Part shown: one piece after another, positions 3,593 through 62,146 of the stretch
Position numbering within the stretch: the first letter of the stretch is position 1
Layout of the letters: every line of letters begins with the position of its first letter
The notes under the pieces: model-generated
What the model saw: only the letters and a program-made list of their open reading frames with translations
What the model was told of the DNA's origin: nothing
The model's database searches: none
From: Coriobacteriia bacterium
GTDB taxonomy: Bacteria > Actinomycetota > Coriobacteriia > Anaerosomatales > PHET01
Direction of reading: 5' to 3'
Assembly (NCBI GenBank): GCA_034370385.1
Contig: JAXMKZ010000011.1
Coordinates: 165,103 to 229,102, forward strand
Length of the DNA stretch: 64,000 bases
Program-made: the position numbers and the translations under genes

Positions 3593-4058
3593 GTCTGAAC
3601 TCCCCGACCGCCCTGTCTCTCACCTCAAGCACCCCGACCGTGCGACTCGGTTGACGCCTGCGCTGTGAGGACGACCCGGGATTCACCACCAGCACGCACC
3701 CGTGCCATTCGCATCGAGGAACGTGCGAGTGGCCGCAGACCACGACATCGACATCCTCAGGAATCGGTCCTAGGTCCGAGAAATCGTGGATCACGAGGAA
3801 TCGGACGCCGCCGATGCGTGTGCGGGCGACGTAGTCGAGGTCCATGCCGGGAGTCGCCGCGTGATCGCAGTTGCCGGCCACCGCGGTCACCGGCGCGAGG
3901 GACTCCAGATCCCGAAGCACGTGGGGAGCGCACACGTCACCGGCGTGGATGATGGCCTCGACCCCCTCGAATGCCACCGCGACGCGCTCGTCGAGCACTC
4001 CGTGCGTATCCGAGAGCAGACCCACGAGACAGGGTGTGGCGGCTACCTCGTCGGCCAA
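3567..4058 (-). CDS. YfcE/MJ0936-family metallophosphoesterase
   Basis: LLSDTHG, HAGD, GNCD, VCGHSH and NPGS motifs in order. The 3' end overlaps the pgi 3' end by 26 nt (convergent). Confidence 0.8.
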   Translation of the reverse strand: MADEVAATPCLVGLLSDTHGVLDERVAVAFEGVEAIIHAGDVCAPHVLRDLESLAPVTAVAGNCDHAATPGMDLDYVARTRIGGVRFLVIHDFSDLGPIPEDVDVVVCGHSHVPRCEWHGCVLVVNPGSSSQRRRQPSRTVGVLEVRDRAVGEFRLIPLDEIC

Positions 4059-4059
4059 C

Positions 4060-4776
4060 CTACATCCCCAGCGCCTTCTTCAGCGCGGGAACGCGGCGAC
4101 GCGACACCGGGATCTGAGCCCCGCCCTCGCCGGTGAGCGTGAGCAGGAGCGTGCCGCCGTACATCGGCACGACTTCCTTCACGCACGACAGGTTCACGAG
4201 GTAGCGCCGGTGGATTCGGAAGAAGCCGGCTGGCTCGAGTTTGGACTCCAGGCTCGCGAGTGACATCGTGGACAGGTAGCGCTCGTTGGCCGTGTGCAGG
4301 TAGCTGTAGTCGTCCTTCGCCATGATGAAGAGAATGTCTTCCACCGAGATGAGCAGTTTCTTCCCGGCCTTCTCCACAAGGACGCGATCCACGCGAGCCA
4401 GCGCCTGCTCCGACACCGGCGTCAGGCGCGTGATCGCCTGCTTCAGCCGCTCCAGTTCCACCGGCTTGACGAGGTAGTCTGTCGCCTTGACCTCGAAGGC
4501 CTTCACGGCGTGTTCTGAGTGCGCAGTGACGAACACAATGGCCGGCGGTCGTGGATGCGCCGACAGCGTCTCTGCCAACTGCACGCCGCTCAGACCAGGC
4601 ATCTGGACATCGAGGAAGATCACGTCGTAGGGGATGGCCTTGATAAGCTGCAGCGCTTCCATCGCGTTGCCAGCCTCGCCGACCACCTCGACACCACCCG
4701 CTTCGCCCAGCAAGAACCGCAGCTCCGAGCGGGCGGGCGCCTCATCATCGACCACAAGTGCCTTGAGCATCCGCAC
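4060..4776 (-). CDS. LytR/AlgR-family response regulator (REC + LytTR), no adjacent kinase
   Basis: N-terminal receiver (VVDDE...DVIFLDVQMPG...VTA) and a C-terminal LytTR-like domain (FFRIHRRYLVNL). Confidence 0.85.
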   Translation of the reverse strand: MRMLKALVVDDEAPARSELRFLLGEAGGVEVVGEAGNAMEALQLIKAIPYDVIFLDVQMPGLSGVQLAETLSAHPRPPAIVFVTAHSEHAVKAFEVKATDYLVKPVELERLKQAITRLTPVSEQALARVDRVLVEKAGKKLLISVEDILFIMAKDDYSYLHTANERYLSTMSLASLESKLEPAGFFRIHRRYLVNLSCVKEVVPMYGGTLLLTLTGEGGAQIPVSRRRVPALKKALGM

Positions 4777-4925
4777 CTCCTCCGAGCAACGAAACCGCCC
4801 CGCAGATCATCGACGAGCAGCTTGAAGCATAGTGTATCCGCAATTCCGCGCCCGGCACACCTGCGTCAGGCAGGCCCGGAAGGGTCGGCTGACGGCGCTT
4901 CACGACGAGACCACCGTGTTCACGC

Positions 4926-5744
4926 TCAGACATCGCGCACGAGCAGCAGGTAGCGATGGGCGTCTGTGCGGAATCCGGCTGCCTCGTACGCAGTTCGCCC
5001 AGCGTAGTTGCTCTCCTGCGTACAGAGCGATATCCCGAGCGCCCCGCACCTGAGCGCCCACCGGTCCGCATCGCACAGGAGCGCGGTCGCAACGCCTCTG
5101 CGCCGGGCACCAGGGATGACCGCGAGCTTGCTCACCGACACGGTCGAGCCGAGGAGCGTCGACGCCGCGTAGCCGACCGCCACCCCTGCGTCATCTCGCA
5201 CCACACGCACGTGGTCGGTGGCGAGCATTCGCCCGAACTCCTCGGGGCCGTGTCGCCAGAACGCACCGAAGCACTCGACGTCGATGCGTTCAAGCGCCTC
5301 GACGTCGGTGGGCGTGGCCGCCTCCGGTGGGTGTGCCCGGGGCGTCCGACCGCGCGCAACGCCACCAGCGGCAACGGTGAACGCCACCAGGCCCTCAAGG
5401 TCGCCCATCCCGCACCGACGGTAGGGAGCGGCTGCGCCCTCCTGTATGAGCGGCGACATGACTCGACGGTATCCACGCGACGCTGCGATCGTCGCGGCCT
5501 GATCCACAAGACCGGCGATCCGAGCGGCGGGGGCACACAGCGCCCGTATCGCCAGTACATCCCCTCGGTCGCGCCACGCCTCGAGGACGATGACATCGCC
5601 TCGGTCTGAGACGCGCACGCGCCACGCACCTGCCTCGTGGAACGCGGCGAACTCCCGTTGCGTCCCCATGAGGTGCGCCGACCGGACCGCTGGCCACAGG
5701 CTCGCGAGCTCCTCGGAGCGTGCCTCCCGGGTCATCGTCGTCAC
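4926..5744 (-). CDS. GNAT-family N-acetyltransferase, apparently with two tandem GNAT-like halves
   Basis: The C-terminal half carries LAVIPGARRRGVATALL...AYEAAGF. The GTG start overlaps the upstream TauE stop (GTGA). Confidence 0.7.
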   Translation of the reverse strand: MTTMTREARSEELASLWPAVRSAHLMGTQREFAAFHEAGAWRVRVSDRGDVIVLEAWRDRGDVLAIRALCAPAARIAGLVDQAATIAASRGYRRVMSPLIQEGAAAPYRRCGMGDLEGLVAFTVAAGGVARGRTPRAHPPEAATPTDVEALERIDVECFGAFWRHGPEEFGRMLATDHVRVVRDDAGVAVGYAASTLLGSTVSVSKLAVIPGARRRGVATALLCDADRWALRCGALGISLCTQESNYAGRTAYEAAGFRTDAHRYLLLVRDV

Positions 5745-6529
5745 AGCAACGCGCCCACTTCACTTGCGCCCAGCCACAGGGCCATGGTCAGCAGCAACAA
5801 GGCGAATCCGATGCGTAGTCGACGATCGGCGGCGCCCGCACTGATCCGCGCGCCGACCAGTGCGCCGGGTATCACGCCGACCGTAAGGCCGGCCGCTATC
5901 GCCCAATCGATGTTCCCCAGCAGCGCGTGCGTGATGGTTCCCGGCACCGCCAGGAGTGCGACGGCGACCAGTGATGTCCCGATCGCCACTTTGATGGGGT
6001 ACCTGAGCCATCTCGTCAGAAGGGGAACGAGCACGAATCCGCCGCCCAAACCGAAGAAGCCCGAGTAGGCGCCGGTGAGCACCCCGATCGCCGCGAGCTT
6101 GAGGGCGCGCCCGCCGGTGTTCGGGACGTTGTGCGCATCGGCATCCTCACGTGGGGGCCGGTAGATCTGGATCGTCATGTCCGCTGCCGCCCAGACGATC
6201 AGAAGAGCCGTGCCGACGAGCACCACCGAACCACCGACGAGCCGGGTCGCCCACGCTCCCGCGACGGCGGTCAAAGAGCCCGCGAGGCCAACGACCACTC
6301 CGGCACGCACATCAGCGAGCCCCCGCCGCGCGTAGGAAGCCGCCCCGGTGATCGCGCTGGGCAGAATGACCGGCAGCGGCGTTCCGACCGCCACCAGGGC
6401 GGAGGCATCGGTGAAGAACCGAATCGCGGGCGTCGTGATGATGCCCCCGCCGATGCCGAACATGCCGGACAAGACCCCTGAGACGAACCCGATGCCCACC
6501 GCAACGAACGCGCCGGCCATCGAGCTCAC
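5741..6529 (-). CDS. TauE/SafE-family anion exporter (sulfite-exporter family permease)
   Basis: 262-aa polytopic protein with repeated GxGGG motifs (FGIGGGIITTP, FFGLGGGFVLVP). The GTGA overlap links it to the upstream gene. Confidence 0.8.
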   Translation of the reverse strand: MSSMAGAFVAVGIGFVSGVLSGMFGIGGGIITTPAIRFFTDASALVAVGTPLPVILPSAITGAASYARRGLADVRAGVVVGLAGSLTAVAGAWATRLVGGSVVLVGTALLIVWAAADMTIQIYRPPREDADAHNVPNTGGRALKLAAIGVLTGAYSGFFGLGGGFVLVPLLTRWLRYPIKVAIGTSLVAVALLAVPGTITHALLGNIDWAIAAGLTVGVIPGALVGARISAGAADRRLRIGFALLLLTMALWLGASEVGALL

Positions 6530-7785
6530 CTGGAGGGCGGTACGACCGGAAAACGCCCGGTGAGCGCGGTGCGGTCGATCTGACGTTCACCGGTGAACAG
6601 GGTCTCGAGCGCCACATCGCCCCAGATGCGCTCCATGAGCAGTGGCCAGCGTCGCTGGAACTCGAAGTAGTTCTGGCAGTTCTCGCGAGCGTAGGCGCCG
6701 GCTTCGCGCACGGCGTGGAGCCCGTAGCGGAAGTACAGGGCCTTCTCGGGCCGGGCGATCGCGCGCAGCATGCCCGTCATGAACGCGCGCCATCCGACCG
6801 ACGAGTCGATGAACTCGCCCGGGTAGGGCGCCATCGACTTCGGCGTCACCTGACGCAAGTCCACCTGAGACTTGGCGAACTCGATCTTGCGGTGCTCGTA
6901 CACGAAGCGATAGACGTCCTGCCTGAACCGCATCGCCTCGCTCACGGCAGTCGGCGGAAGGTGCAGCACGCACCATTCGTCGTCGATGAAGACGTCTCCG
7001 CCGTGCATGCGCGCGTTGATGACGTAGTCGACATCCTCGCCGCGTGTCACCCACGGGTCGAAACTCACCGCAGAGAACATGTCGCGGTGCAAAGCGAGGA
7101 TTCCGCCGAACGCGACCTTCGCACGCTGAATCCTCGGTGGCTTCATCACCACGTCCAAGGCCTTGTTGAATGCGTCCTGCTGACGCCAGAAGGCATCTGA
7201 CCAGTGAGGCTCGCTGTGTTTCTGCCAGCGCCCCTGGGAGTCCACGTAGTAGCCACTCTTGGCCAGCAGCGGCGTGCCGTCCTGCAGGTGAGCGCCCAGA
7301 CCGTACAGCGCCGTCTCGAGAAACGCCGCCGACTCGACCATCTCGTCGTCGTCGACGAACACCACGGAGTCATGCCCAAGCACCGCTGCCGCTATCAGGC
7401 CCACGTTGCGAACCGCTCCGTAACCGGTGAGCGTTATGCCCTCGATGAGATCGGCGAACTCGAGCTGCTCGAGTCGGCGGTGCAGCGACCCCATCTCCGC
7501 CGGGCCGAAGACGAACGCATCGATGTCGGAGAACTCATCGATGATATCCCGCACGCGGTCCTCCGCCTGGTGGGCGATGGCTTCCTCGGTGACGGCGACG
7601 ATGACAACCACGCGGCCCAGCCCACGCACATTGCGCAGGGACTGGAGGCATGCCCTGAGCGGCGGCTCGATGTCGTCGAGCGGCGTCGGGTGGTCGTAGA
7701 TGGCCGCGTTCTCGTCAACGCCGACGCGGCCTCGTCCGCCGGTCCGGCGGGTCCAGAAGGTCGGTATCACTACAACGGGGTCCAC
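6526..7785 (-). CDS. Uncharacterised GT-A-like (DXD) glycosyltransferase-like protein
   Basis: 419-aa ORF. The N-terminal VVVIPTF..., an internal VVFVDDDEMV (DXD-like) and later GEDVDY resemble a GT-A fold. I do not recognise the family. Confidence 0.45.
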   Translation of the reverse strand: MDPVVVIPTFWTRRTGGRGRVGVDENAAIYDHPTPLDDIEPPLRACLQSLRNVRGLGRVVVIVAVTEEAIAHQAEDRVRDIIDEFSDIDAFVFGPAEMGSLHRRLEQLEFADLIEGITLTGYGAVRNVGLIAAAVLGHDSVVFVDDDEMVESAAFLETALYGLGAHLQDGTPLLAKSGYYVDSQGRWQKHSEPHWSDAFWRQQDAFNKALDVVMKPPRIQRAKVAFGGILALHRDMFSAVSFDPWVTRGEDVDYVINARMHGGDVFIDDEWCVLHLPPTAVSEAMRFRQDVYRFVYEHRKIEFAKSQVDLRQVTPKSMAPYPGEFIDSSVGWRAFMTGMLRAIARPEKALYFRYGLHAVREAGAYARENCQNYFEFQRRWPLLMERIWGDVALETLFTGERQIDRTALTGRFPVVPPSR

Positions 7786-7842
7786 GGTGCGGCGGCTCCT
7801 GAGTCGGGTGCAGATCGTGTAGCAGCGCGCACCATGATACCG

Positions 7843-8529
7843 CTACGGAGCCGCTTGCGCCGTGATGGTGCGCTCATCGACCAGACAATGGCGAAGCGAC
7901 TCCTCCAGCACACGGTACGGTCGACTGCCGATGAGAAGCTCATTGCAGATCAGAGCCGCGGGCGTTGCTTCGATACCAAACGACAAGGCCATGTGACGGA
8001 ACTGATGGAGGCGCTCGTCGTACGTCCCCGCATCGAGCGCTCCCCGCGCCTCCTCGGCGCTGAGTCCGCACTCTTGTGCGATGCGCACGAGAACATCCAT
8101 CTCCCCAATATCGGCAGCGTGACCGTTGTAGGCAGCGAACAGCGCCTCGTGAACGAGCTCATGAACTTGTGGCCCCCCGTCGCGTGCGAACTCACCCAAT
8201 GAGAGCGCGAGGTGGGTGTTGGGCATGAACCCGGGCGACGCAAGGAGCAGATCGCCTTCGCGGGCCATGAGCTGCATGTGTTCCTCGACGCGCTCCGAAT
8301 GCCCGCCGCCAAACGCCTCCATCGATACTCCCCGCGCGTCGAGCGTAGGTCGCAGCTCGAACGGCACCAAGAACAGTTCGACTGCGTGCTCGCTGCGCAT
8401 ACGCTTGAAGCGTGGCCAGTCCAGGTAGCAGAACGGACAGGCGTAGTCGAAGAACACCAGAACCCGCGGCGTCACCGACTCACGGCTCTCGTCATTGTGG
8501 TCATGCTCACGGTCCGGGGTGTCAGACAT
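7843..8529 (-). CDS. DsbA/FrnE-like thiol:disulfide oxidoreductase, no signal peptide
   Basis: FFDYACPFCY thioredoxin-fold CxxC motif, with a DsbA-family helical insert. Confidence 0.75.
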   Translation of the reverse strand: MSDTPDREHDHNDESRESVTPRVLVFFDYACPFCYLDWPRFKRMRSEHAVELFLVPFELRPTLDARGVSMEAFGGGHSERVEEHMQLMAREGDLLLASPGFMPNTHLALSLGEFARDGGPQVHELVHEALFAAYNGHAADIGEMDVLVRIAQECGLSAEEARGALDAGTYDERLHQFRHMALSFGIEATPAALICNELLIGSRPYRVLEESLRHCLVDERTITAQAAP

Positions 8530-8571
8530 CGTCCTCCTTCAGTCAACGAGAAGTACGTACCCAACCCCCGC

Positions 8572-9591
8572 TCAGCGCACGATGCGCAACTCATGCCGGC
8601 ATGCGACGCACCGACCACGGCTATCGAGACCTGATGCATCGCACGCGAACCCCGATCGGTGCACGGCCACGGCCTGGCAGACGGGGCAGAGCGTATCCGC
8701 CCCTCCGACCACGTCCACGTTACCGAGGTAGACAAAAGACAGTCCCTCCTCGCGACCGATCCGCCGCGCTCGCTCAAGATCTGCGACGGGGGTCGGCGGC
8801 AGATGCGCGAACTCCAGGTACGGCACGAACCGAGTCACGTGCCACGGCGTGTCGACACCGAGAGCGGAGGCGATCCAAGCGGCCACGGCACGGAGTTCGT
8901 CATCGGAGTCGTTGATTCCGGGAACGACGTTGGTGACGCACTCCACGTGCATGCCATGCACGGCAGAAGCGCGCTCGGCTGCGGCTCTAACGGCCGAACC
9001 ATGGCCCACATGACAGAGCGCTTGGTAGGTCTGGTCGTAGTACCCCTTCACGTCGGTGCGCCAGACATCGACGTGTCCGGCGAACAGATCCAAGCCCTCC
9101 GCCGTCACGTAGCCGTTCGTGACCATGACCGTGTAGAGACCCGCCGCTTTCGCCGCACGTGCACCGTCGAGCACGAACTCGGGCCATATCGTCGGCTCGT
9201 TGTAGGTCCAGGCAACCCCCGAACAACTCTGCGCACGAGCGAGTTCAGGTATCCGCTCGGGATCCAGCGAGGATAGCGGCACGGTGCCGTCGTCGCCTCT
9301 GGGCCGTGAGATCTGCCAGTTCTGACAGTGCCCGCATCGCATCGAGCAGCCAACGCCACCCACTGACAGCACCCGGCTGCCCGGGTGAAAATGGAACACC
9401 GGCTTCTTCTCGATGGGATCGGCCGCAATCGAGCTGACCAGACCGTACGTCAGCGCCTCGAGGCGACCTGCGACCACGCCACGTGCACCACACACGCCCG
9501 AAGCGCCCTCGGCGATGAGGCATGCGTTGGGGCACAGGAGACAACGGACGCGGTCACCCTCCGCCCTCCACAGAAGAGCTTCGTGACCCAC
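8572..9591 (-). CDS. AmmeMemoRadiSam-type radical SAM enzyme (PflA-like activase family)
   Basis: N-terminal CLLCPNACLIAEGASGVCGAR motif followed by GCSMRCGHCQNW (CX3CX2C). Confidence 0.8.
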   Translation of the reverse strand: MGHEALLWRAEGDRVRCLLCPNACLIAEGASGVCGARGVVAGRLEALTYGLVSSIAADPIEKKPVFHFHPGSRVLSVGGVGCSMRCGHCQNWQISRPRGDDGTVPLSSLDPERIPELARAQSCSGVAWTYNEPTIWPEFVLDGARAAKAAGLYTVMVTNGYVTAEGLDLFAGHVDVWRTDVKGYYDQTYQALCHVGHGSAVRAAAERASAVHGMHVECVTNVVPGINDSDDELRAVAAWIASALGVDTPWHVTRFVPYLEFAHLPPTPVADLERARRIGREEGLSFVYLGNVDVVGGADTLCPVCQAVAVHRSGFACDASGLDSRGRCVACRHELRIVR

Positions 9592-9630
9592 GGTCGCCTC
9601 CCTTCACACGCGAAGGCCGCGCGCCGTTCG

Positions 9631-11421
9631 CTAGTGGGTCTGTACCCGACTCGCCAGTTCGACGCGGTTGCGACCGCGACGTTTCGCGCGATACAGCGCG
9701 GCGTCAGCTGCCGAGAGCAACCCTTGGGGATCCGTGATCGACGGCCCGAACGCCGCCACGCCCAGAGATGCTGTGGCACTCACCCGCATACCGTGTTCCG
9801 TGTGCGAGACCATCGAGCCCAGAAGCGTCCGTAGCTTCTCCGCCACGACCCATGCGTCAGACTCGGTGGTGGCAGCCAACACCAGCGCGAACTCGTCGCC
9901 CCCGTAACGGAAGGCGATGTCCGTAGCGCGCAACTCCGACTTCAGCAGCACCCCGACCGAACGCAGCAGCGTGTCGCCGGCCGCGTGACCTTGCGTGTCA
10001 TTCACGCCCTTGAAGCCGTCGAGATCGAGCATGATCAATGCGAGGTCGTTCCCGTATCGCCTGGAGCGACCGACTTCTTCCTCAAGGCGCAGGTTGAAAG
10101 CTCGCCGATTGAACAGGCCGGTGAGGTCGTCTGTGACCGCCTCGGACTCGAGACGCTCGCGCTCGCGCGTGAGCCGCCTGCGCGCCAGCGGGAAGCACGC
10201 GTCCCACGACGAGTTGCCGAGGCAGACGGAGGCTGCGTGTTCGATACAGGTGTCGTAGCCGCAGGCGCCGCAGTCTAGTGCGTCGTTGCGGGTGAAGAAC
10301 TCACCTGCGGCCAGGGCCTGATCGATCTCGGCGTCGCTCGGCTCGACCCTCATCGCAGGATCCGGCGAGAAGGAGCGACGCAGGTCCACCGTCGGGCGGT
10401 CGAGTCTCAAGACGTCCCGCGGAGGCAACATACGCTCTCGCTCCGCGAGATCGATGTTGCGCTTGGCAAACACGGATACCCCGGCATTGACACACGGTCC
10501 GTCGATGCAGCTCTCGCAGCTCAGCATGTCCACCACCTCGGGGAAGACCTCACCGCGGCTGATTGCCGTCAGGAATCGGTCTATGTCCCTCAGCCCGCGC
10601 ACCACAGCTACGCCGCGGTCCGTGAGGTTGCTCTTCTGAAGAGTGCGGCGCGGGAACCCGTCGGTTGCCGAGAGCTCCTTGCGATGCGCAAGCGGCCCGG
10701 GCTCGCAGCCGTCGTTGATGGCGTGCGCCCCTTCCGCCACGAGCTTTCTCAGCTCATCGAAGCCGATCACAACGTCGACGTATTCAGCTGCAAGCGCTTC
10801 GTCCTTTCGGGCCCAACAGGGAGACGCGTAGACGATGGCCACCTCTGTGTGATGCTTGTCGCGGATCACGCGCGACTGGGCGATGTAGGGTGGCACCAAG
10901 GGAACGAGAGCCCCGGTGAGCGCAGGGTGGAAGAAACGAACCCAGTCCACCGCCACCGGACACGTCGAACGCAGCCGAGGAGGATGGACCGCATCGGTAG
11001 CGTGCACCTGTTCGTACGCCGCGGCGACGATCTCCTCGCCGACCACGGTGGTCTCGATGTGCTCGAAGCCGAGCGCGCACAGCGAAACCTCTACCTGCGT
11101 GGGCTCGAGCGGATGCAGCGCCGCGATGTACTCGCTGGCCAGAAGCATGACAACGGGAGTCTCGCCCTCAAGGAGCTCACGGACCAGGCCAAGATCGTCT
11201 CGGATGATGCGTGCACCGTTGCCGCATTCGGTGACGCACGCTCCGCACTTCACGCATCGCTCCTCGATGATCTCGGTGCGGCCGTCTATCACGCGAATCG
11301 CGCGTGCAGGGCAGTGGCGCGCGCATCCCCAGCACTCGCTGCACCGATCCGGGACGTGGATGATCAGCGGCTGCACCGCGCCGAAACCCCGCCCATTCGT
11401 CCCCTGCTGGTTGTGAACCAC
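9631..11421 (-). CDS. Fe-S sensor diguanylate cyclase: 2x[4Fe-4S] ferredoxin, [FeFe]-hydrogenase-like domain, RnfB-type Fe-S domain, GGDEF
   Basis: CSECWGCARHCP and CVKCGACVTEC ferredoxin motifs. H-domain-like motifs STCP, SPCWARKDE and LSCESCIDGP. CGACGYDTCIEHA...C Fe-S motif. C-terminal RYGGDEFALV with RxxD-type context. Confidence 0.8.
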   Translation of the reverse strand: MVHNQQGTNGRGFGAVQPLIIHVPDRCSECWGCARHCPARAIRVIDGRTEIIEERCVKCGACVTECGNGARIIRDDLGLVRELLEGETPVVMLLASEYIAALHPLEPTQVEVSLCALGFEHIETTVVGEEIVAAAYEQVHATDAVHPPRLRSTCPVAVDWVRFFHPALTGALVPLVPPYIAQSRVIRDKHHTEVAIVYASPCWARKDEALAAEYVDVVIGFDELRKLVAEGAHAINDGCEPGPLAHRKELSATDGFPRRTLQKSNLTDRGVAVVRGLRDIDRFLTAISRGEVFPEVVDMLSCESCIDGPCVNAGVSVFAKRNIDLAERERMLPPRDVLRLDRPTVDLRRSFSPDPAMRVEPSDAEIDQALAAGEFFTRNDALDCGACGYDTCIEHAASVCLGNSSWDACFPLARRRLTRERERLESEAVTDDLTGLFNRRAFNLRLEEEVGRSRRYGNDLALIMLDLDGFKGVNDTQGHAAGDTLLRSVGVLLKSELRATDIAFRYGGDEFALVLAATTESDAWVVAEKLRTLLGSMVSHTEHGMRVSATASLGVAAFGPSITDPQGLLSAADAALYRAKRRGRNRVELASRVQTH

Positions 11422-11436
11422 GCGCTACTCCCCCGG

Positions 11437-12000
11437 TCACGCTTCGCGCTTGAGCACCTCGCGAAGGCCAAGCCGATCCAGCGCGGCAAGAAGCGGCCAC
11501 CCCAAACCGTATACCACGAACGCCTCACCGACGCCTACTGCCACGACACCGAACAGATACATCCCCAGCCACGACTGTTCAAGGTTGATGCCTAGCGCAG
11601 GGATCTGATACAGACCCAGTCCCTTCAGCAGCCACGGAAGGTAGGCGGGCACGATCAGGGCGTTCGCCACCACCGGACCGGCCAGCGCGAGGGCTCGCTT
11701 CTGGCGAAAACGCCATGTCCACATGGCCCCGATCGCCGTGGCGCATGAACCGAAGACCACGTCGAGCAGTGCCAGCGGTCCGAGCACCGTAAGATTCGTG
11801 AGGTTGGCCATGGCGGTGCCCAGCGTCAGACCCGGAATCGCGGCGGGCGTGAAACACGCGATCACGGTGAAAGCCTCGCTGAGCCTGAACTGGATCGGTC
11901 CCCAGGAGAACACGGTCAGCGTCTGCATGGTGATGAACGACAGCGTCACGTGTACGGCGGCGATCACCCCGGCTTGGGCGACGTAGCGGGTGCGGGTCAA
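11437..12000 (-). CDS. queT: QueT-family (queuosine precursor) transporter
   Basis: 187-aa, 5-6 TM protein. The N-terminus AQAGVIAAVHVTLSF...FRLSEAFTV is typical of the QueT/ECF-S-like family. TTG start. Confidence 0.65.
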   Translation of the reverse strand: MTRTRYVAQAGVIAAVHVTLSFITMQTLTVFSWGPIQFRLSEAFTVIACFTPAAIPGLTLGTAMANLTNLTVLGPLALLDVVFGSCATAIGAMWTWRFRQKRALALAGPVVANALIVPAYLPWLLKGLGLYQIPALGINLEQSWLGMYLFGVVAVGVGEAFVVYGLGWPLLAALDRLGLREVLKREA

Positions 12001-12090
12001 GGAGATTCGGACCTTCCTGCACGCTCATCGGAGACCCTGTCGGCCGCCGATCAAGTGCACGGGATTGTAGCAGTGCGCCACGAGGCTACG

Positions 12091-14199
12091 CTATGCGGGC
12101 AGCTCAGGGCTCCCGAACACCTCGCTGTAGGCCAGTAGTCCGGTGCCACCTGCCAGGGCCATGCGGTCCAAAACATCGAAGAAGGCCGCGACGACACGCG
12201 GATCGAACTGCGTGCCCGTCCCCGCTTCCAGCTCCTCCTTCGCCTGTTTCAGGGTGAGTTTGGACGCGTACGTGCGCACACTCGTCATCGCGTCGAACGC
12301 ATCAGCGACGGCCAGAACGCGCGCAAGCAGTGGAATGCCGTCGCCCTTGATGCCCTGAGGATAGCCCTTGCCGTCCCACCGCTCGTGGTGGTGAAGGATG
12401 ATCGGCGCGAGCGATTTGAGGAACTCGATCTGGTCGATGATCGAAGCGCCCATCTCGGCGTGCTTCTTCGCAAGTTCGAACTCGTCTGTGGTGAGTCGAC
12501 TCGGCTTGAGCAGAATCTCCTCGGGCACACCGCTCTTGCCCACATCGTGCAGCAGGCCGGCGAATCGCAGCTGTTCGACGGCCTCGTGTCCAAGCCCAAG
12601 CTCGATTCCGATCTCCATCGCGTACTGCATGACCCGACCCGAGTGACCGCTCACGGCGTGTTCACCCAGGTCAAGGGTGACCGAGAGCGCCGCTATCGTC
12701 TTGGCGTAGTCGTCGCGGATACGCGAGAACAAAGCCGACCGGCCAAACGCCGGCCCGCCGTGCGCGGCGATACCCTCGAGCAGCGCGTTATCCTGAGCAC
12801 CGTAGCGCTCCCCGTCCATCCGGGCGATGAAGAGATACCCGACGTCCAGATCCCCGTGACGAAGCGAGGCCACAGCCAGAGCCCAGTCCGCATCGTCCTC
12901 GCCGTCTGTGAGCTCACCGTGCACGGTGACGAAGCGCTCGGTCGCGAACGGTTCCGACTCGATCTGGCGACCGCAGACCTGAGAGAGCACCTCGCCCAGG
13001 GCGACCGTGGGCACCATGCCGCCTACGGCGACCTCAAGACGGTCCTCGCCCCATCCGGTGAGCACAAGGCCGGCCAGATCGTACGTGAACGACTTCTCCA
13101 CGACGCCCAAGAGCAGCTGCGCCACAGAAGCGATGTCGGTCTGACCGCCCAAGGCGGCAGCCAGCCCGTTGAGCTGTGTGTACCCCGCCATGGCTCGCTC
13201 GACGGCGACCCGTTCGTCCTCCCGCTCGATAGCGATCGAGATGAACTGTCCGAAGCGTGAGAGGCGGGCGATGCGGTCCTGAGAGACGGGATACGCTGAG
13301 GCCGGCAGCCTGACCTCAAGAACTCCGAGTACTGTCTCAGAAAGGGCGAGTGGCATCGCCAGCGTTGCGGAACCGCCGTTGCCCGGTGCAACCACGGTGC
13401 GCCGCGTCTCGGCCGCTCGTCCCGAGGCCGTGGATGCCCTCGGCACGGTCGCCCCCAACCCACCCCGCCATCCGGGCGTGCGGGCTATGACCTCAAGCGC
13501 AACTCCGCGAGGTCGCAGAATGGCACCAGCGTCGCCACCGACGAGCGCGACCGCCTCTTCGGTGATCTCGCCCAGGGCACCTGAGTCCAAGTGAGCGTGG
13601 GACACCACGTGGTGACCCGCTGAAACGAAGAGCCGAAGCTCCTCGATCCGCTCGGTCGCCGCCGCATGCTCGACGGCGGCCTCGAGCACGGTCTTGGCAC
13701 TCGCAACCGCCAACAGGAGGAAGGACTCGGCCTGATGGCGCGCCAAGACCGGAAGGGACTTCATGGCGCGCCGCGCCGTATCCTCACTCGAACCGCGACC
13801 GAGCAGCGACTCATACCGACCGCGCCGTTCGCGTGTCGAGGTCACGAAACCCGCAAGGGCAACGTGTCCCACCGTCGTCCCCGCACGCTCGAGTGGCGCG
13901 TACAGCACGGGCAGTCCGGCACGGCAGACGATGCGACCGGGACCGGCGTCCGAGGATGGGCAGACATCAAAACATGAAGCCGGGGTCATGACCGACCCGT
14001 CAGCGGCGAGCAGGCAGTAGCTGCAGCGGCCCGCCCCGGACAGCGGGGCACATGCCTCGAAGTCCATCACCGACACGGTCGCTCCCGTGGCCTGGAACAG
14101 GGCGTCCGCAGATGCCTTCCAGTCCGGGGAATCGAATGCCGTAGCGACGATCCTTCTGTCTGCGATGGACACGCGCGCGCAACCCTTCCGTTCGTGCAC
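12091..14199 (-). CDS. PocR-like sensor, GAF domains and HD-GYP phosphodiesterase
   Basis: The N-terminal Cys-rich region ending in CRAGLPVLYAPL...GHVALAGF is PocR-like. The C-terminus has HDVGK...HHERWDGKGYPQG (HD-GYP). Confidence 0.8.
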   Translation of the reverse strand: MHERKGCARVSIADRRIVATAFDSPDWKASADALFQATGATVSVMDFEACAPLSGAGRCSYCLLAADGSVMTPASCFDVCPSSDAGPGRIVCRAGLPVLYAPLERAGTTVGHVALAGFVTSTRERRGRYESLLGRGSSEDTARRAMKSLPVLARHQAESFLLLAVASAKTVLEAAVEHAAATERIEELRLFVSAGHHVVSHAHLDSGALGEITEEAVALVGGDAGAILRPRGVALEVIARTPGWRGGLGATVPRASTASGRAAETRRTVVAPGNGGSATLAMPLALSETVLGVLEVRLPASAYPVSQDRIARLSRFGQFISIAIEREDERVAVERAMAGYTQLNGLAAALGGQTDIASVAQLLLGVVEKSFTYDLAGLVLTGWGEDRLEVAVGGMVPTVALGEVLSQVCGRQIESEPFATERFVTVHGELTDGEDDADWALAVASLRHGDLDVGYLFIARMDGERYGAQDNALLEGIAAHGGPAFGRSALFSRIRDDYAKTIAALSVTLDLGEHAVSGHSGRVMQYAMEIGIELGLGHEAVEQLRFAGLLHDVGKSGVPEEILLKPSRLTTDEFELAKKHAEMGASIIDQIEFLKSLAPIILHHHERWDGKGYPQGIKGDGIPLLARVLAVADAFDAMTSVRTYASKLTLKQAKEELEAGTGTQFDPRVVAAFFDVLDRMALAGGTGLLAYSEVFGSPELPA

Positions 14200-14283
14200 G
14201 GACAGAACACTGCTCTTAGTGTCGGCTTAGACCGAGTCCGACTTGAGGGGCAACGTCCGCTTCTCCTTGCGCGCGGACCGCGG

Positions 14284-15768
14284 TCAGATTCGACCGCGGG
14301 GCAACGTGATCAGGAACGTGGTACCTACTCCGATTTCGCTCTCGACCGCGATCGTCCCGTTCATGTTGTCCAGCAGGCTCTTGGCAATCGCAAGCCCCAG
14401 TCCGAACCCGCCTTCTCCTGCGGCTCTGGCCGAATCACTGCGAAAGAAGCGGTCGAACAGACGCGGCAGGTCCTCCGCCGGGATTCCCTTGCCGGTGTCG
14501 CTCACGACAATGGTCACCATGTCACGACGACGTGAGGTCATAAGAGCGATGCGGCCGCCCGCAGACGTGTACTTGGCCGCGTTGTCGAGCAGGATAGTCA
14601 GCACGTCCTCGATGCGACCGGGGTCGCCCACCATGAGCAACGACTCTTCAAGGGGTCCCTCGAACTCGATACCCCGATCGAGGAACCGGCTGGCGGTGGC
14701 AGCGATCCGGTCTCTGGCAACAGCGTTCAGATCGAGCTTCTGTGTATTCAGACGCAGACCCTGGTCGGCATGAAGCAGATTCAGCAGGTCGCTGGTCAGT
14801 CGGGCCATCCGCCGAGACTCGCGGTCGATCGCATCGATGGACTCCTCTTGCACCTTGGGGTCATCAGCACCCCAGGCACGAAGGATGCTCGTGTAGCCGC
14901 GGATACCTGCGACCGGCGTGGCAAGCTCGTGCGATGCGTCGGCCACGAACCGCGATTGAGCCTCAGCGCGTCTTCCGAGCCGCTCGATCAGCTGGTTGAT
15001 CGAGCGCGCAAGCGCGCCGATCTCATTGTCCCCAAGCTCCGGTAGCCGCTCATCGAGCCTTCCCGCATCGATCGAATCGGCAGCGCGGCGGAGTTCGTCG
15101 ACCAGATTGAGAACCCATGTCATCGACGTCTGCATGAGAAACGCCATCACCAACATCGCCGAGAGGGCAAGCACCATCATCGGCAGCCGGATCCGGTCGA
15201 TCACCCGCTCTTCGATGACGGGATCGTACGAGACGTCCAGCACCCCCACGCGATCATCAGACACCTCGATGGGCACGTGTACGACCGTGACGCCAAGGCC
15301 GGCCCTGTTGATCAGCCCACTTAGGAAGTCGCCCTGTTCGCTTGTGGAACGCCGCGGCAGCCCGCTCAGAATAGCCGCTTCGCGAGCGATCGAGCCCGCG
15401 GGCTCGATCGCTTCTGGCGTCGAAGCCCACAGCAGCTTGTCGTCATCGGTGAACAGCGCGAATCGCGCACCCGCAAGGCCGGCGGCGGCCAAGCGCTCCG
15501 GCAGGCGCGAGGACATGAGTGCGCGCACCTCGAGCGCACGCTGGTCCGGGTCCAACATGAGCACCTGCGGGTCCGTCTCGGCAGCAGTGGCGATGTCTTG
15601 AGCGATCGCCTTAGCAGTCGATGCGACGTTCTCGGTCGTCTCAACCGCGACAGACTGCATGCCATCCGAGACGATCACGTACGTCGTCAGAGCTACGCCC
15701 CCGACCACGAGGACGGCAAACAACACCGAGACGAACAGAAGCCAGCCCCTGAGTGACCAGGGTCGCAT
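14284..15768 (-). CDS. Sensor histidine kinase (2 TM, HAMP, HisKA, HATPase_c)
   Basis: FVADASHELATP H-box, with DNAAKYT (N box), DTGKGI and GGFGLGLAI (G boxes). Confidence 0.9.
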   Translation of the reverse strand: MRPWSLRGWLLFVSVLFAVLVVGGVALTTYVIVSDGMQSVAVETTENVASTAKAIAQDIATAAETDPQVLMLDPDQRALEVRALMSSRLPERLAAAGLAGARFALFTDDDKLLWASTPEAIEPAGSIAREAAILSGLPRRSTSEQGDFLSGLINRAGLGVTVVHVPIEVSDDRVGVLDVSYDPVIEERVIDRIRLPMMVLALSAMLVMAFLMQTSMTWVLNLVDELRRAADSIDAGRLDERLPELGDNEIGALARSINQLIERLGRRAEAQSRFVADASHELATPVAGIRGYTSILRAWGADDPKVQEESIDAIDRESRRMARLTSDLLNLLHADQGLRLNTQKLDLNAVARDRIAATASRFLDRGIEFEGPLEESLLMVGDPGRIEDVLTILLDNAAKYTSAGGRIALMTSRRRDMVTIVVSDTGKGIPAEDLPRLFDRFFRSDSARAAGEGGFGLGLAIAKSLLDNMNGTIAVESEIGVGTTFLITLPRGRI

Positions 15769-16455
15769 CTACGTCCTCGCGAAGAAGTAGCCCACGCCCC
15801 TGATGGTCCGGATGACCTGGTTGTCCACATCGCCGATCTTGTTGCGCAGGTGACACACGAAGACCTCGATGACGTTGCTGTCGGTGGAGTGCTGCCCTGC
15901 CCACACGCGCTCGAGAATCTCATCGCGGCTGATAACCCTGCCCGCGTTGGTGACGAAGAACTCCAGCAGGTCGTACTCTTTCGCCGTGAACTTCACGACT
16001 TCGCCCGCGACGAGCACCGTCCGAGATGACGGGTCGATCTCGATGTTGCCGGAGCGATACTGGGGCCCGGACTTGTCCGAGTCGACGCGCTTGAGCAAAG
16101 CGCGAATCCTCGAGAGCAACTCGGGAATCTCGAAGGGCTTGCGCAGGTAATCATCAGCACCGGCATCGAAGCCGGTGACGACGTCTTGGGTCTCTGAGCG
16201 TGCGGTCAGCATGAGTATCGGGGTCGCGACGCCATCAGCCCTCAGAGTTCGAGCGATCTGAAGCCCATCGATTCCCGGCAGCATCAGGTCAAGCACGATG
16301 ACGTCGGGCTCGAACTCCTCGACCGCCAGAATCGCTGCGTTCCCCTCTCCCACCTTCATCACCTGAAACCCGGCGTGCAGCAGTTCGAGCTCTACGAAAC
16401 GCGCGATGGTCGCATCATCTTCAACCACGAGCACTTTTGATCCGGTCTCGTCCAT
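15769..16455 (-). CDS. OmpR/PhoB-family response regulator
   Basis: REC domain (VVEDD...DVIVLDLMLPG...LTA) plus a winged-helix C-terminus (IRTIRGVGY). It abuts the kinase gene. Confidence 0.9.
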   Translation of the reverse strand: MDETGSKVLVVEDDATIARFVELELLHAGFQVMKVGEGNAAILAVEEFEPDVIVLDLMLPGIDGLQIARTLRADGVATPILMLTARSETQDVVTGFDAGADDYLRKPFEIPELLSRIRALLKRVDSDKSGPQYRSGNIEIDPSSRTVLVAGEVVKFTAKEYDLLEFFVTNAGRVISRDEILERVWAGQHSTDSNVIEVFVCHLRNKIGDVDNQVIRTIRGVGYFFART

Positions 16456-16486
16456 CTGTGCCTCCTGCCCTTGTCCATGCCTGCTC

Positions 16487-17533
16487 TTAGGAGCTCAGAA
16501 GCGTCTCCGCGATCTGCACCGCATTGAGCGCAGCCCCCTTCCTGAGCTGGTCAGCGACCACCCACATGCTCAGGCCGTGCTCAACAGTCGAATCGACCCT
16601 CAGTCGACCGACATAGGTGTCGTCAGTACCTTCGAGCATCGCCGGCATCGGATACTCCTTGGCGGCGGGGTCATCCAGCACCGTGATTCCCGGTGCCGCC
16701 GACAGTGCCGCGCGGGCTTGCTCTAGTGAAATGGCCGAGGAGAACTCGACGTTAACGGCTTCCGAATGGCACCGGAGCACCGGCACACGCACGCAGGTGG
16801 CGCTCACCTCGATCTCAGGTGCACCCATGATCTTCTTGGTCTCGGCGACCATCTTCCACTCTTCCTTGGTGGACCCGTCATCGAGGAACACATCGATCTG
16901 AGGGATGCAGTTGAAAGCGATACGGTGCGCGAACTCGCGAACGTGAATCTCCTGGCCGCGCAGGAAGTCCCCGCTTTGGCTGTAGAGCTCATCCATGGCG
17001 GCCTGACCAGCGCCCGAGGCCGCCTGATACGTCGCCACCACGACGCGCTTGATCACAGCGATGTCGTGAAGCGGCTTGAGCGCCACCACCATCTGGATGG
17101 TGGAGCAGTTGGGATTGGCGATGACTCCCCTGTGCCCCCCTACGTCGCCGGGATTCACCTCGGGCACCACGAGCGGGACGTCGTCGTCCATCCGAAACGC
17201 CGACGAGTTGTCGATCATCACTGCACCGGCACCGATGACGGCCGCACGAAACTCCTTGCTCACCGATGCTCCGGCACTGAAAAGCGCGATGTCGACGCCC
17301 TCGAAACTCGAGGGCGTCAGCTCTTCGACGATGAGTTCGCCGCCGCGAAACGGAATCTTCTTGCCCGCTGAGCGCGCCGAGGCAAGGGCCACGACCCGCG
17401 ACGACGGGAATGCGCGCTGGTCAAGCACCTTGAGCATCTCGCGGCCCACAGCGCCTGTCACGCCGGCCACAGCCACCACCGGCGAGGGTGGCATCGGCTT
17501 TGTCCACGTCATGTCGCTCGTTCCCCCCCGCAC
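16487..17533 (-). CDS. asd: Aspartate-semialdehyde dehydrogenase
   Basis: GVTGAVG NAD motif and the NPNCSTI active-site Cys motif. Positioned downstream of ask, as in Actinobacteria. Confidence 0.9.
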   Translation of the reverse strand: MRGGTSDMTWTKPMPPSPVVAVAGVTGAVGREMLKVLDQRAFPSSRVVALASARSAGKKIPFRGGELIVEELTPSSFEGVDIALFSAGASVSKEFRAAVIGAGAVMIDNSSAFRMDDDVPLVVPEVNPGDVGGHRGVIANPNCSTIQMVVALKPLHDIAVIKRVVVATYQAASGAGQAAMDELYSQSGDFLRGQEIHVREFAHRIAFNCIPQIDVFLDDGSTKEEWKMVAETKKIMGAPEIEVSATCVRVPVLRCHSEAVNVEFSSAISLEQARAALSAAPGITVLDDPAAKEYPMPAMLEGTDDTYVGRLRVDSTVEHGLSMWVVADQLRKGAALNAVQIAETLLSS

Positions 17534-21457: not shown

Positions 21458-21598
21458 CGATCCGCCCGCAGCTTGAATGGCTGCGGATAGCCCCTTCTTC
21501 CGAATGGACAGTGATACGTCGTGTAGTTGATGTGCTAGGCCTGCGCAGCAGCACGAGTGGTGCCTAATCGACACTGCCAGCATAACAATAGCGCACAA

Positions 21599-43351: not shown

Positions 43352-43414
43352 AATGCGACGCACAAGAGGCGAGTGGCTTCAGGCCCGCCGCAACTGCAAC
43401 TGCCAGGAGGTCCG

Positions 43415-44434
43415 ATGCGTCACACGATCCGCATCCTGCTATCTCTAGCTTTCGCCTGCGGGGCGATGGTAGGCAGCGTCGGGACGGCGAGCGCCGAACC
43501 CGTCCGTGCCTCGGCCGGCTACACGATCTCCGGCAGTGTGTATGCCGTGCCCCCGGTCAGGCCGCTCGACGAGGTCGAGGTGGCCCTCTACCAGTCGAAC
43601 GGCGCGGGAGGGTGGAGTCGCGTGAACTGGACGGTGCCGCTCAACGGCGAGTACCAGTTCAACGACGTCCCAGCGGGCGAGTATCGGGTCGGGGTCGAAC
43701 GGCCCGCAAACGCATCCAGCCCGCTGTGGCGCTATCCCCTGCCACTCTTCTGGAGCAACTACGCCTCGACGGTCGAATCGGCCACGACACTCCGTGTCGT
43801 CGGCGATGTGCAGCTCTCGTCCGTGGCGGCCTTCGAGAACTCGCGCGTCTCGGGCACGCTCCGGTCAGAGGTGAACGGCGCTCCCCTGTCTGGTGCGGCC
43901 GTGACACTGTACTGGTTCGCGGGCGCTGAAGCGCCTCGCACCGACACCGTGCTCACGGATCGGTTCGGCGAGTACTCCATCTACGTACCGAGGGGTGATG
44001 CGAACTCGTTCAGCCTGCGGTTCGCCAAGCCGGGCTACGTCACGGAGTTCTACGACGACCGGACCCGCCTCGAAGATACCGAACGACGAAGCGCCGACAC
44101 ATGGGAAGGACTGGGCGGTTGGTTGCGCGCGCGCATCACGGGCGCTGTCGCACCCTCGGTGCGCACGGTGCGCGGACGCGGCACGGTGCGAGTCACGACG
44201 ACCTTGCGTGACGGTCCCACCGGTGCGCCGAAGCCCAACGCGCAGTTCCGTCTCCAGCGCTCGTACAACAACCGCACGTGGAGCAACATCGGAGGCGTGC
44301 TGAAGACCGGTAGCACCGGACGGCATGTCGCGTCCACGACGGTGACCCGCACGACGTACTTCCGCTGCGTGCCGTTGTCTTCGTCGAAGTACCTCGGCGT
44401 GACCTCGTCTTCGGTGAAGGTGAGCAAGCTGTAG
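43415..44434 (+). CDS. Secreted protein with CarboxypepD_reg-like beta-sandwich repeats (paralog A)
   Basis: Signal MRHTIRILLSLAFACGAMVGSVGTASA. Repeats of the type YTISGSV...G.YQFNDVPAGEYRVGVE. C-terminal FRLQRSYNNRTW...RTTYFR module. Confidence 0.7.
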   Translation: MRHTIRILLSLAFACGAMVGSVGTASAEPVRASAGYTISGSVYAVPPVRPLDEVEVALYQSNGAGGWSRVNWTVPLNGEYQFNDVPAGEYRVGVERPANASSPLWRYPLPLFWSNYASTVESATTLRVVGDVQLSSVAAFENSRVSGTLRSEVNGAPLSGAAVTLYWFAGAEAPRTDTVLTDRFGEYSIYVPRGDANSFSLRFAKPGYVTEFYDDRTRLEDTERRSADTWEGLGGWLRARITGAVAPSVRTVRGRGTVRVTTTLRDGPTGAPKPNAQFRLQRSYNNRTWSNIGGVLKTGSTGRHVASTTVTRTTYFRCVPLSSSKYLGVTSSSVKVSKL

Positions 44435-44493
44435 AGAGAGCGGCCCGAGTCGCTCGTGGCCGGCTGCCTATCCACCGCGAACGGGGAGGAACG

Positions 44494-45867: not shown

Positions 45868-46042
45868 GACGAGAGCCTCGTCCGAAGTGAAGATGCCGTT
45901 CGCCGACACGGTGTCCCGGTCGGCCCGCTGTAGTCTTGTGTAAGGGTCCATCCGCAGTAGCGTCGTCGGAAGGAGTAGCGTGCCACGGGTCTGGACGAGT
46001 ACCCTGATGCGCGCCCAGCCGTTCACGCCCACAGGAGGTCCG

Positions 46043-61517: not shown

Positions 61518-61741
61518 GGGATTCCCCTCCGAAACCATGGTTGCATGCCATCCGGCACCTGATGCTGATGCGGTGCGACATCGCCGCGCAGCCAGCATAA
61601 CCCAACGCGAGCGCACGAGCGGACGCCGAGACGGCACAGACGCCCGCCTCCCTGGGCTGCGACGGCGACCCCTGTCGAAAGGCGAGGTTGACTTGTAGGA
61701 ATGCGCCCATGCCACGCGAACACGTGGGCGAGCGGCGTGTG

Positions 61742-62146
61742 TCACGTGATGATCAGCGCGCCGGGATACGCACCGTGTGCACAGGCGTCCGCGCTCACGA
61801 GCGTCGCACCGAGCAGACTCGCGCACGCCGGCGCGAGCGCGTCGTAGAACGAGCAGCCCAGGGCGGCGCACTGGGTGGCGGCCTCGGCGATGACTTGGTC
61901 TTCGAGCGGAACGATCGTGATGCCCGACGCTTTCATATCCTCCCACGCCTCGGGAATCGCCCGATGGGTGAATTCGCGCCGCACGACGGACAGCACCTCG
62001 TGCACGAAATGCGTCGGCGCAACGAGCAGAATCTCTCCGTCCATTGCCCTGCGATACAGGACACGCGAGGCGTCCGAGCCGGGTTCGTCCATGAACCACT
62101 TCACCCCGATGGACGCATCGAGTGCGAAGGCTTCCCGCGAACTCAC
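61742..62146 (-). CDS. vapC: PIN-domain toxin VapC (pair 3)
   Basis: ALDASIGVKWF...HFVHEVL...FYDALAPA...LVSADACA. ATGA-type overlap with vapB. Confidence 0.85.
   Translation of the reverse strand: MSSREAFALDASIGVKWFMDEPGSDASRVLYRRAMDGEILLVAPTHFVHEVLSVVRREFTHRAIPEAWEDMKASGITIVPLEDQVIAEAATQCAALGCSFYDALAPACASLLGATLVSADACAHGAYPGALIIT

Follow-up and report, generated by a model that had tools for sequence, protein, structure and literature searches.

Does a protein that carries the core of an [FeFe]-hydrogenase in front of a diguanylate cyclase (DGC) report on H2, or has the hydrogenase fold been turned to another signal? This question is raised by a gene on a stretch of 64,000 nucleotides from a Coriobacteriia bacterium (contig JAXMKZ010000011.1), referred to as the window in the following, which has a G+C content of about 65%. 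The gene joins a HydS-like iron-sulfur (Fe-S) sensor to a GGDEF domain and is called sensor-DGC here. We favor, at a probability of roughly one half, the reading that sensor-DGC is an Fe-S redox or oxidant sensor which drives the synthesis of cyclic di-GMP (c-di-GMP) and which derives from H2 sensors of the HydS lineage. An earlier reading of the letters, the original prediction, had proposed H2 or redox sensing; formal alignment and comparative data shift the weight from H2 to redox.

The gene and its parts are located as follows.

9631..11421, minus strand: whole sensor-DGC gene, HydS-like Fe-S sensor plus diguanylate cyclase (list of open reading frames; GTG start, 596 amino acids)
11212..11364, minus strand: N-terminal ferredoxin-like domain with two CxxCxxCxxxC motifs, C27/30/33/37 and C56/59/62/66 (Fer4_10, Fer4 and Fer4_9 matches)
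10486..11202, minus strand: [FeFe]-hydrogenase H-domain-like region, residues 74-312 (PF02906, profile matches, Foldseek)
11131..11142, minus strand: LASE, residues 94-97, at the position of A230-P231-S232 of CpI (HMMER alignment to TmHydA 'APA', clade frequencies)
10957..10971, minus strand: L1 motif RSTCP, residues 151-155 (alignments, back-translation)
10798..10824, minus strand: L2 motif SPCWARKDE, residues 200-208 (alignments, back-translation)
10495..10530, minus strand: L3 motif DMLSCESCIDGP, residues 298-309 (alignments, back-translation)
10195..10275, minus strand: C-terminal accessory cluster Cx2Cx4Cx16C, C384, C387, C392 and C409 (PF04060, invariant cysteines, TamHydS alignment)
10141..10194, minus strand: linker helix, residues 410-427 (AlphaFold2 secondary structure)
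9652..10140, minus strand: GGDEF diguanylate cyclase domain, residues 428-590 (PF00990, TIGR00254)
9919-9930, minus strand: I-site RATD within the GGDEF domain
9889-9903, minus strand: active-site GGDEF within the GGDEF domain

A database copy, 100% identical to the protein of 596 amino acids, is annotated 'MAG: diguanylate cyclase [Coriobacteriia bacterium]' (MAG, metagenome-assembled genome). The predicted domain order, two ferredoxin clusters, H-domain, Fe-S motif, helix and GGDEF, is borne out by Pfam, NCBIfam and AlphaFold2, and back-translation places CSECWGCARHCP, CVKCGACVTEC, RSTCP, SPCWARKDE, DMLSCESCIDGP, DCGACGYDTCIEHA...C and RYGGDEF at the corresponding positions of the gene. Two Fer4 units span residues 20-70 (Pfam), all eight of their cysteines are invariant or nearly so across the family alignments, and the domain aligns with the F-domain of TamHydS (BLASTP). 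Fe_hyd_lg_C (PF02906) matches residues 90-309 with an E-value of 2.9e-22 and exceeds its gathering score. The FeS domain (PF04060, residues 382-411) reaches 21.4 bits against a cut-off of 23 bits in the window protein and exceeds the cut-off in 127 of 129 relatives; C384, C387, C392 and C409 are all invariant in the family alignments. For the output, PF00990 covers residues 428-586 (E 1.7e-42, 145 bits) and TIGR00254 scores 168.6 bits. An AlphaFold2 model built from 26 homologues has a mean predicted local distance difference test score of 83.9. Its first 400 or so residues match the [FeFe]-hydrogenases DdH, CbA5H and the HydA of HydABC (Foldseek E ~1e-16, ~390-460 columns), its C-terminus matches solved GGDEF domains with a template modeling score of ~0.9, and the linker helix spans the entire stretch between the last ligand, C409, and the GGDEF domain.

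For the ancestry of the sensor, TamHydS is the most informative relative. Its sequence was rebuilt from the coding sequence in the supplement of the 2026 TamHydS study (PMC13104023), and 17 of 17 quoted residue numbers agree. Over residues 25-428 sensor-DGC is co-linear with TamHydS at 23% identity (BLASTP, E 7e-27, no large gaps), and C379 and C404 of TamHydS align to C384 and C409. According to PMC8163306, the motif Cx2Cx4Cx16C is what unites the putative sensory groups C (M2f, TmHydS) and D (M2e, TamHydS); the spacing of C384, C387, C392 and C409 matches it exactly. Thus, the 'RnfB-type' Fe-S motif of the original prediction is present, but its precise identity is that of the C-terminal cluster of group C/D HydS proteins. 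Judged by sequence, the input module of sensor-DGC is homologous to sensory-type, not catalytic, [FeFe]-hydrogenases, in good agreement with the kinship that had been proposed.

An exhaustive profile search with the N-terminal 418 residues against 1.84 billion representative proteins returned 8836 matches, with 737 clusters at E<1e-30. The best 150 of the 737 clusters all carry the whole sensor module and were sorted by their L3 motif into three classes. A CxxxC class of 60 clusters (~570 amino acids) is PAS-fused and shows the classical HydS architecture. The 69 clusters of a CxxC class (392-1035 amino acids, mostly 560-1035) carry HisKA/HATPase_c (34-36), sigma-54 AAA+ (13), GGDEF (11) or extra PAS domains, and 18 clusters from the best 150 represent the window gene's own family. 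Since it is fused to PAS, HisKA/HATPase, sigma-54 AAA+ or GGDEF outputs, the predicted HydS-like module is a widely reused signaling input domain. HydDB distinguishes kinase-linked (C1), chemotaxis-linked (C2) and phosphatase-linked (C3) [FeFe] groups, all of them putative, and gives a diguanylate-cyclase-linked class solely for [NiFe] group 2c. This entry was also the sole related literature match for a diguanylate cyclase: full-text searches revealed no paper joining [FeFe] or H-cluster with GGDEF or diguanylate cyclase, and the statement that no such link from an [FeFe]-type sensor to c-di-GMP has been characterized thus stands within the literature searched. The combination of a GGDEF output with a remodeled pocket is new within a known, poorly understood sensor class.

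Single-sequence and profile alignments (HMMER) to the solved hydrogenases 7p5h, 8a6t, 7qv7, CbA5H, DdH and CpI, with E-values down to 3e-21, were compared with the BLASTP alignment to TamHydS. In the profiles C154, C202, C302 and C305 fall on the four H-cluster cysteines of the solved enzymes, so all four ligand positions are retained as predicted. In L1, where RSTCP faces TSCCP, C154 takes the place of the ligand C300 and T153 that of the proton-relay C299; the exchange of the relay cysteine for threonine had been noticed before and proves invariant in the family. In L2, SPC-WA-R-KD-E faces MPCxxKxxE with S200 at M353, C202 at C355, R205 at K358 and E208 at E361. Here the earlier reading has to be corrected: the lysine is not retained, as K206 lies one residue past the K358 position, which R205 occupies. 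A second correction concerns L3, where DMLSCESCIDGP faces ExMxCxxxCxxGG and HMMER and BLAST agree on one deleted residue between the cysteines. The resulting C-E-S-C is a CxxC pair and lacks one residue of the CxxxC found in catalytic hydrogenases and TamHydS and assumed in the earlier reading. Consequently, the three motifs do align with cysteines and glutamate in register, but not in their L3 spacing and not at K358. L300 occupies the M497 position and D298 that of E289 in TamHydS; the equivalents of the proton-path residues S249 and E252 of TamHydS differ between the BLAST and HMM alignments, and E289 to D298 is the only path residue used below. LASE (94-97) corresponds to the A230-P231-S232 stretch of CpI, and E97 is invariant. 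As a hard filter for [FeFe]-hydrogenases, Greening et al. (2024) required CxxxC. Under such a filter, proteins like sensor-DGC would be excluded from surveys of this kind, and the entire CxxC sensor branch would be missed.

In CpI the A230-P231-S232 motif contacts the proximal cyanide (CN) ligand and K358 hydrogen-bonds the distal one. In mutagenesis by Knörzer et al., replacement of K358 reportedly abolishes cofactor insertion in model enzymes. At these and neighboring positions the GGDEF-fused proteins depart from the remaining sensors as follows.

C299 position: T in 100% of the core family; T in 100% of the outer GGDEF clade; P/A/T/S or A/S/C in other CxxC/CxxxC sensors
S232 position: E in 100% of the core family; E in 88% of the outer GGDEF clade; S in 82-96% of other CxxC/CxxxC sensors
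K358 position: R in 100% of the core family; M, Q, K, H or A in the outer GGDEF clade; K in 89-98% of other CxxC/CxxxC sensors
P231 position: S/T in the core family; mostly P in the outer GGDEF clade; P in 92-98% of other CxxC/CxxxC sensors
Q325 position: Y in the core family; mostly M in the outer GGDEF clade; M in other CxxC/CxxxC sensors
M353 position: S in the core family; mostly G in the outer GGDEF clade; G in 98% of other CxxC/CxxxC sensors

By these column frequencies the other CxxC and CxxxC sensors retain APS, SPM, G and K, the CxxxC class keeping K358 (98%) together with APS and the G at M353. Within the GGDEF-fused proteins the motif table reveals a graded pocket series, from the canonical-like end with P0140 (APS / A / SPM / G / K) over the intermediates P0276-P0281 and P0330 (APE / T / SPM / G / R) to the window family (ASE / T / PPY / S / R). 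In the GGDEF clade the exchanged residues mostly have a bulkier side chain, which would fill the cavity that holds the [2Fe] subcluster. A further member of the clade, P0261 (574 amino acids), retains GGDEF and the C-terminal cluster motif, but its L1 reads IRSTSP and neither a PC motif nor CxxC is present; with the cysteines of L1, L2 and L3 lost, it may represent an end-point of H-site decay. In a rough neighbor-joining tree of the sensor module the window family groups with other GGDEF-fused proteins, and a few further GGDEF fusions are found elsewhere; the tree sets P0140 apart from the main GGDEF clade, while synteny suggests shared ancestry. Within the family the diiron pocket can be followed in natural steps from P0140 to the window form.

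Gene context provides a second line of evidence. A scan of GTDB species representatives detected the family in at least 112 species, and 80 loci were compared, all 80 from uncultured Coriobacteriia/Actinomycetota MAGs of Anaerosomatales/OPB41 type. In none of the 80 family species (~1.5 Mb of flanks), and in none of the 46 with full flanks, was hydE, hydF, hydG or a hydrogenase found within 10 kb of the gene. Neither Pfam, applied to 40 long open reading frames, nor a whole-window tblastn with HydE, HydG and HydF revealed a hydrogenase or a maturase in the window; the maturase search that had been proposed along with the original prediction thus returned none in the 64-kb window or the family flanks of up to 10 kb. 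With queries from a Bacteroides finegoldii record, tblastn against the window and 89 loci (1.6 Mb) gave no match for HydE and HydG and a single one for HydF, in locus L086.

For comparison, a metagenome scan with two K358-type sensors yielded 80 loci, of which those with at least ~8 kb on each side are considered well-flanked. HydB/HydC-like genes, HydE/G/F genes or both lie within 10 kb of histidine-kinase-fused sensors with K358 in 22 of 23 well-flanked loci, usually in the order hydC-hydB-hydA-sensor kinase-...-hydE/G/F. In L098, L109, L111, L133, L150, L155 and others, hydC-hydB-hydA is followed by a HydS-like sensor histidine kinase of CxxC or CCxGC type and hydE/hydG/hydF. This cluster has the appearance of a hydrogenase operon that includes its own H2-sensing kinase; a description of CxxC-type HydS-like sensors was not encountered in the literature searched. 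A sigma-54-fused sensor of K358 type in L087 lies directly upstream of nuoE/nuoF-like hydrogenase subunits. Because hydrogenase and maturase genes adjoin them, H2-linked roles of the K358-type sensors are supported. Along this line, a sigma-54-fused subfamily without K358, with G/A at this position and His at C299 (L142, L144, L146, L149, L153, L156-L158, L163, L165 and L168), has hydrogenase or maturase neighbors in 0 of 11 loci. Across the relatives, K358 and the hydrogenase and maturase neighbors are lost together, and the window family groups with the sensors no longer in a hydrogenase context. This suggests a sequence rule by which K358 separates H2-sensing from redox-repurposed members of a mostly unannotated superfamily.

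RYGGDEF is invariant in 26 of 26 aligned family sequences. The same holds in these 26 diverse members of the family for D466, D468, N474 and D483 and for the RxxD I-site (R498-D501), which precedes GGDEF by five residues. By analogy with PleD we take D466, D468, N474, D483, R498 and D501 to serve in metal and substrate binding and in the I-site. Since GGDEF, the binding residues and the RxxD I-site are invariant, the cyclase should be active and product-inhibited; the GGDEF output, predicted before, looks catalytically competent. It attaches where group C proteins carry PAS, directly past Cx2Cx4Cx16C.

The favored reading may be spelled out as follows. Sensor-DGC would be a cytoplasmic DGC with a four-cluster Fe-S input taken from a branch resembling the putatively H2-sensing HydS groups C/D. 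Because the diiron cavity is remodeled, the H-site would keep only its [4Fe-4S] cubane, the diiron subcluster probably being lost, and would report redox state or oxidants rather than H2. The signal could be the reduction level of a ferredoxin-type electron pool; alternatively, O2 or NO could act by damaging the clusters. Electrons would pass in or out via the two N-terminal [4Fe-4S] clusters to the H-site cubane, and the changed cluster state would alter the packing of the H-domain and the C-terminal Cx2Cx4Cx16C cluster. The last ligand of that cluster, C409, would sit at the base of helix 410-427, which in the AlphaFold2 model offers a plausible mechanical route from cluster state to the geometry of the GGDEF dimer and may thereby switch c-di-GMP synthesis. 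The RxxD I-site would provide product inhibition, and nearby HD-GYP proteins would degrade c-di-GMP. In TamHydS, H2 does not reduce the C-terminal cluster, for which a structural rather than a redox signaling role has been suggested (PMC13104023).

The strongest competitor is a true H2 sensor with a complete, non-canonical H-cluster, that is, a Thr/Glu/Arg second sphere and CxxC, whose HydEFG are encoded elsewhere in the genome; H2 oxidation would reduce the clusters and switch GGDEF, the conserved radical SAM neighbor possibly helping. We consider it rather unlikely, yet several observations weigh against our preferred reading and in its favor. Besides the full-length homology to TmHydS and TamHydS, which bind an H-cluster in vitro, the four ligand cysteine positions are strictly conserved in more than 100 species. 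T153, E97, Y179 and R205 are invariant and not decaying, so that selection acts on the pocket, which could accommodate a modified cofactor. An arginine at the K358 position could still hydrogen-bond the CN ligand, and D298 is conserved and matches E289 of the TamHydS proton path. Many CxxC sensors sit in hydCBA/hydEFG clusters, hence CxxC spacing alone is no argument against an H-cluster. In L086 only 4 nt separate the end of a bona fide hydF (TIGR03918, 490 bits) from the downstream gene of the GGDEF-fused P0140. The cultured Anaerosomatales are hydrogenotrophs that grow on H2 (PMC9686372), which makes H2 a relevant signal. Moreover, the extent over which absence of hydEFG was observed is the window and flanks of up to 10 kb, and the contrast of 0 of 80 in the window family with 22 of 23 for the K358 sensors (Fisher p ~4e-17) is drawn from loci that are not phylogenetically independent.

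Against an H2 sensor stand the pocket itself, with Arg at K358 here and non-basic residues (M, Q, A) in several clade members, and Glu in place of S232 beside the proximal CN ligand. The missing hydEFG and hydrogenase neighbors point in the same direction, as does the inventory of the order: for its cultured members [NiFe] groups 1i and 3b with HypABCDEF only are reported, and neither [FeFe] enzymes nor Hyd maturases are mentioned (PMC9686372). Among the 120 best relatives of the L086 HydF, most of which come without an organism name, none of the named ones carries a Coriobacteriia label, which argues weakly in the same sense. Of the H2/redox sensing originally proposed, the redox half therefore fits better, whereas the H2 half is weakened by the remodeled pocket and the 0 of 80 loci with hydEFG neighbors.

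A further possibility arises from the gene neighborhood, of which the following features bear on the sensor.

8572..9591, minus strand: AmmeMemoRadiSam radical SAM gene, 39 nt downstream of sensor-DGC (TIGR04337, 288 bits against a cut-off of 220 bits)
11437-12000, minus strand: queT, between the GAF/HD-GYP gene and sensor-DGC
12091..14199, minus strand: GAF/HD-GYP protein, candidate c-di-GMP phosphodiesterase, two genes upstream (HD_5, HD, GAF_3)
18896-21598, minus strand: second GAF/HD-GYP protein, candidate c-di-GMP phosphodiesterase
4060-4776: LytTR-type response regulator

From upstream to downstream, the same-strand run comprises an OmpR-type response regulator with a histidine kinase, GAF/HD-GYP, queT, sensor-DGC, the radical SAM gene, dsbA, an unknown protein of 419 amino acids, tauE, a GNAT acetyltransferase and, further on, the LytTR-type response regulator, whose equivalent in related loci is preceded by a LytS-type histidine kinase. 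The order queT-sensor-radical SAM-...-tauE-GNAT is near-universal among the 80 family loci. The radical SAM gene was also considered as a HydE or HydG in its own right; its assignment to TIGR04337 and the empty tblastn with Bacteroides HydE/HydG in the window and family loci rule this out. No AMMECR1 or Memo partner was seen near it.

Sensor and downstream AmmeMemoRadiSam enzyme might form a unit in which the latter installs or modifies an H-site cofactor or residue, the signal being one other than H2 or simple redox. The gene follows sensor-DGC at a distance of 5-160 nt in ~75 of 80 species, and it also follows distant relatives (L086 2958-3536, L084 11876-12919, L091 11642-12661). The radical SAM proteins of L084, L091 and L086 are 48-57% identical, although these loci otherwise have different neighbors. 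None of the 80 loci with histidine-kinase- or sigma-54-fused sensors contains the gene, and the polar pocket residues are invariant. We infer that it is a conserved partner gene that would belong to the sensor system. The region is, however, an old syntenic block (ask-asd ... tauE-GNAT-lytS/lytTR) in which adjacency may be inherited, and the clade members L088 and L089 keep sensor-DGC without the radical SAM gene. We regard such a unit as improbable. P0140, which is 36-40% identical, GGDEF-fused and canonical-like in its pocket, is followed by the same radical SAM family, and P0281 (L091) shares its syntenic block with the window gene; given the shared neighbor and block, P0140 and P0281 are most likely positional orthologues of the window gene. 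In the outer clade hypE, hypD and hypC lie 4-10 kb from sensor-DGC in L084 (~19167-21507) and L089 (9687-14507, with hypF in addition), which may reflect inherited synteny or a link to [NiFe]-based H2 metabolism.

Two further readings, finally, are very improbable. One is a working catalytic hydrogenase with GGDEF, for which the slow H2 turnover retained by characterized HydS proteins might be quoted; against it, none of the proton-relay Cys, M353, M497 and K358 is kept, NCBIfam hydrogenase models reach 94.8 bits against a cut-off of 450 bits and the gene lies in no hydrogenase operon. The other is a purely structural Fe-S module on a constitutive cyclase, which would suit the intact GGDEF domain but not the recurrence of this module in hundreds of clusters with kinase, sigma-54 and PAS outputs, the mark of an input domain.

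The region is rich in c-di-GMP turnover genes. Both GAF/HD-GYP genes are kept in most family loci, and the equivalent of 12091..14199 is adjacent or within 6 kb in most of them; its product is a possible antagonist of sensor-DGC and would belong to the same system. Both proteins are encoded within 10 kb upstream of the cyclase, one of them with HAMP, and relatives carry PocR or CHASE4. Genes of the queT type are often riboswitch-controlled; upstream of queT neither a preQ1 riboswitch nor another Rfam match was detected (4000-16600, including the 90-nt gap 12001-12090, E up to 0.1), and promoter and terminator scans gave results at chance level. Elsewhere in the window three consecutive paralogues, each with a CarboxypepD_reg domain, lie at 43373-47065 (plus strand), and an open reading frame of 1651 amino acids at 57435-62390 (minus strand).

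The 2026 TamHydS study left the signaling partner and mechanism of that protein open (PMC13104023). The GGDEF fusion offers a one-protein assay of signal transmission by putative sensory [FeFe]-hydrogenases, with c-di-GMP as an easily measured product. For the Anaerosomatales, which are abundant in the subsurface, the fusion suggests a switch in c-di-GMP signaling that redox state or H2 would control. Should sensor-DGC be a true H2 sensor after all, it would tie H2 availability to c-di-GMP in H2-oxidizing subsurface Coriobacteriia that otherwise use only [NiFe] hydrogenases. Such a direct link from a gas to c-di-GMP would be the first to rest on an [FeFe] site, and its H-cluster would be coordinated in a new way.

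Among the known systems, TamHydS of Thermoanaerobacter mathranii (group D/M2e) is co-linear with sensor-DGC and shares the two [4Fe-4S] clusters, the compact H-domain and the C-terminal Cx2Cx4Cx16C. Both have Ser at M353 and Leu at M497, and both have lost the proton-relay Cys (Ala in TamHydS, Thr here). In contrast, TamHydS ends past the C-terminal cluster without an output domain, keeps K358, APS and CxxxC where sensor-DGC has R, ASE and CxxC, and adjoins a bifurcating hydrogenase operon, whereas sensor-DGC has no hydrogenase neighbors. TmHydS and group C (M2f) use the same input module with the output at the same point and a non-relay residue at C299; their output is PAS or kinase, not GGDEF, and their genes typically lie in hydrogenase/regulator clusters. 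The closest sequence relatives outside the family are HydS-like kinases and sigma-54 activators of CxxC type from Chloroflexota, Armatimonadota and other MAGs. They share the L3 CxxC, Leu at M497 and the C-terminal cluster, but keep K358, APS, SPM and G and feed phosphorelay or transcription instead of c-di-GMP. A functional analogy for a cubane-only H-site is given by the eukaryotic Nar1/NARFL, which has an H-domain-like fold with four cysteines, holds only [4Fe-4S] without HydEFG and acts in Fe-S assembly with no signaling output; the Cx2Cx4Cx16C domain is absent from it. [NiFe] group 2c of HydDB, likewise only predicted, belongs to an unrelated metalloenzyme superfamily, and its cyclase is 'linked' rather than part of one polypeptide; what it shares with sensor-DGC is the proposed principle that a sensor of hydrogenase type governs the synthesis of c-di-GMP.

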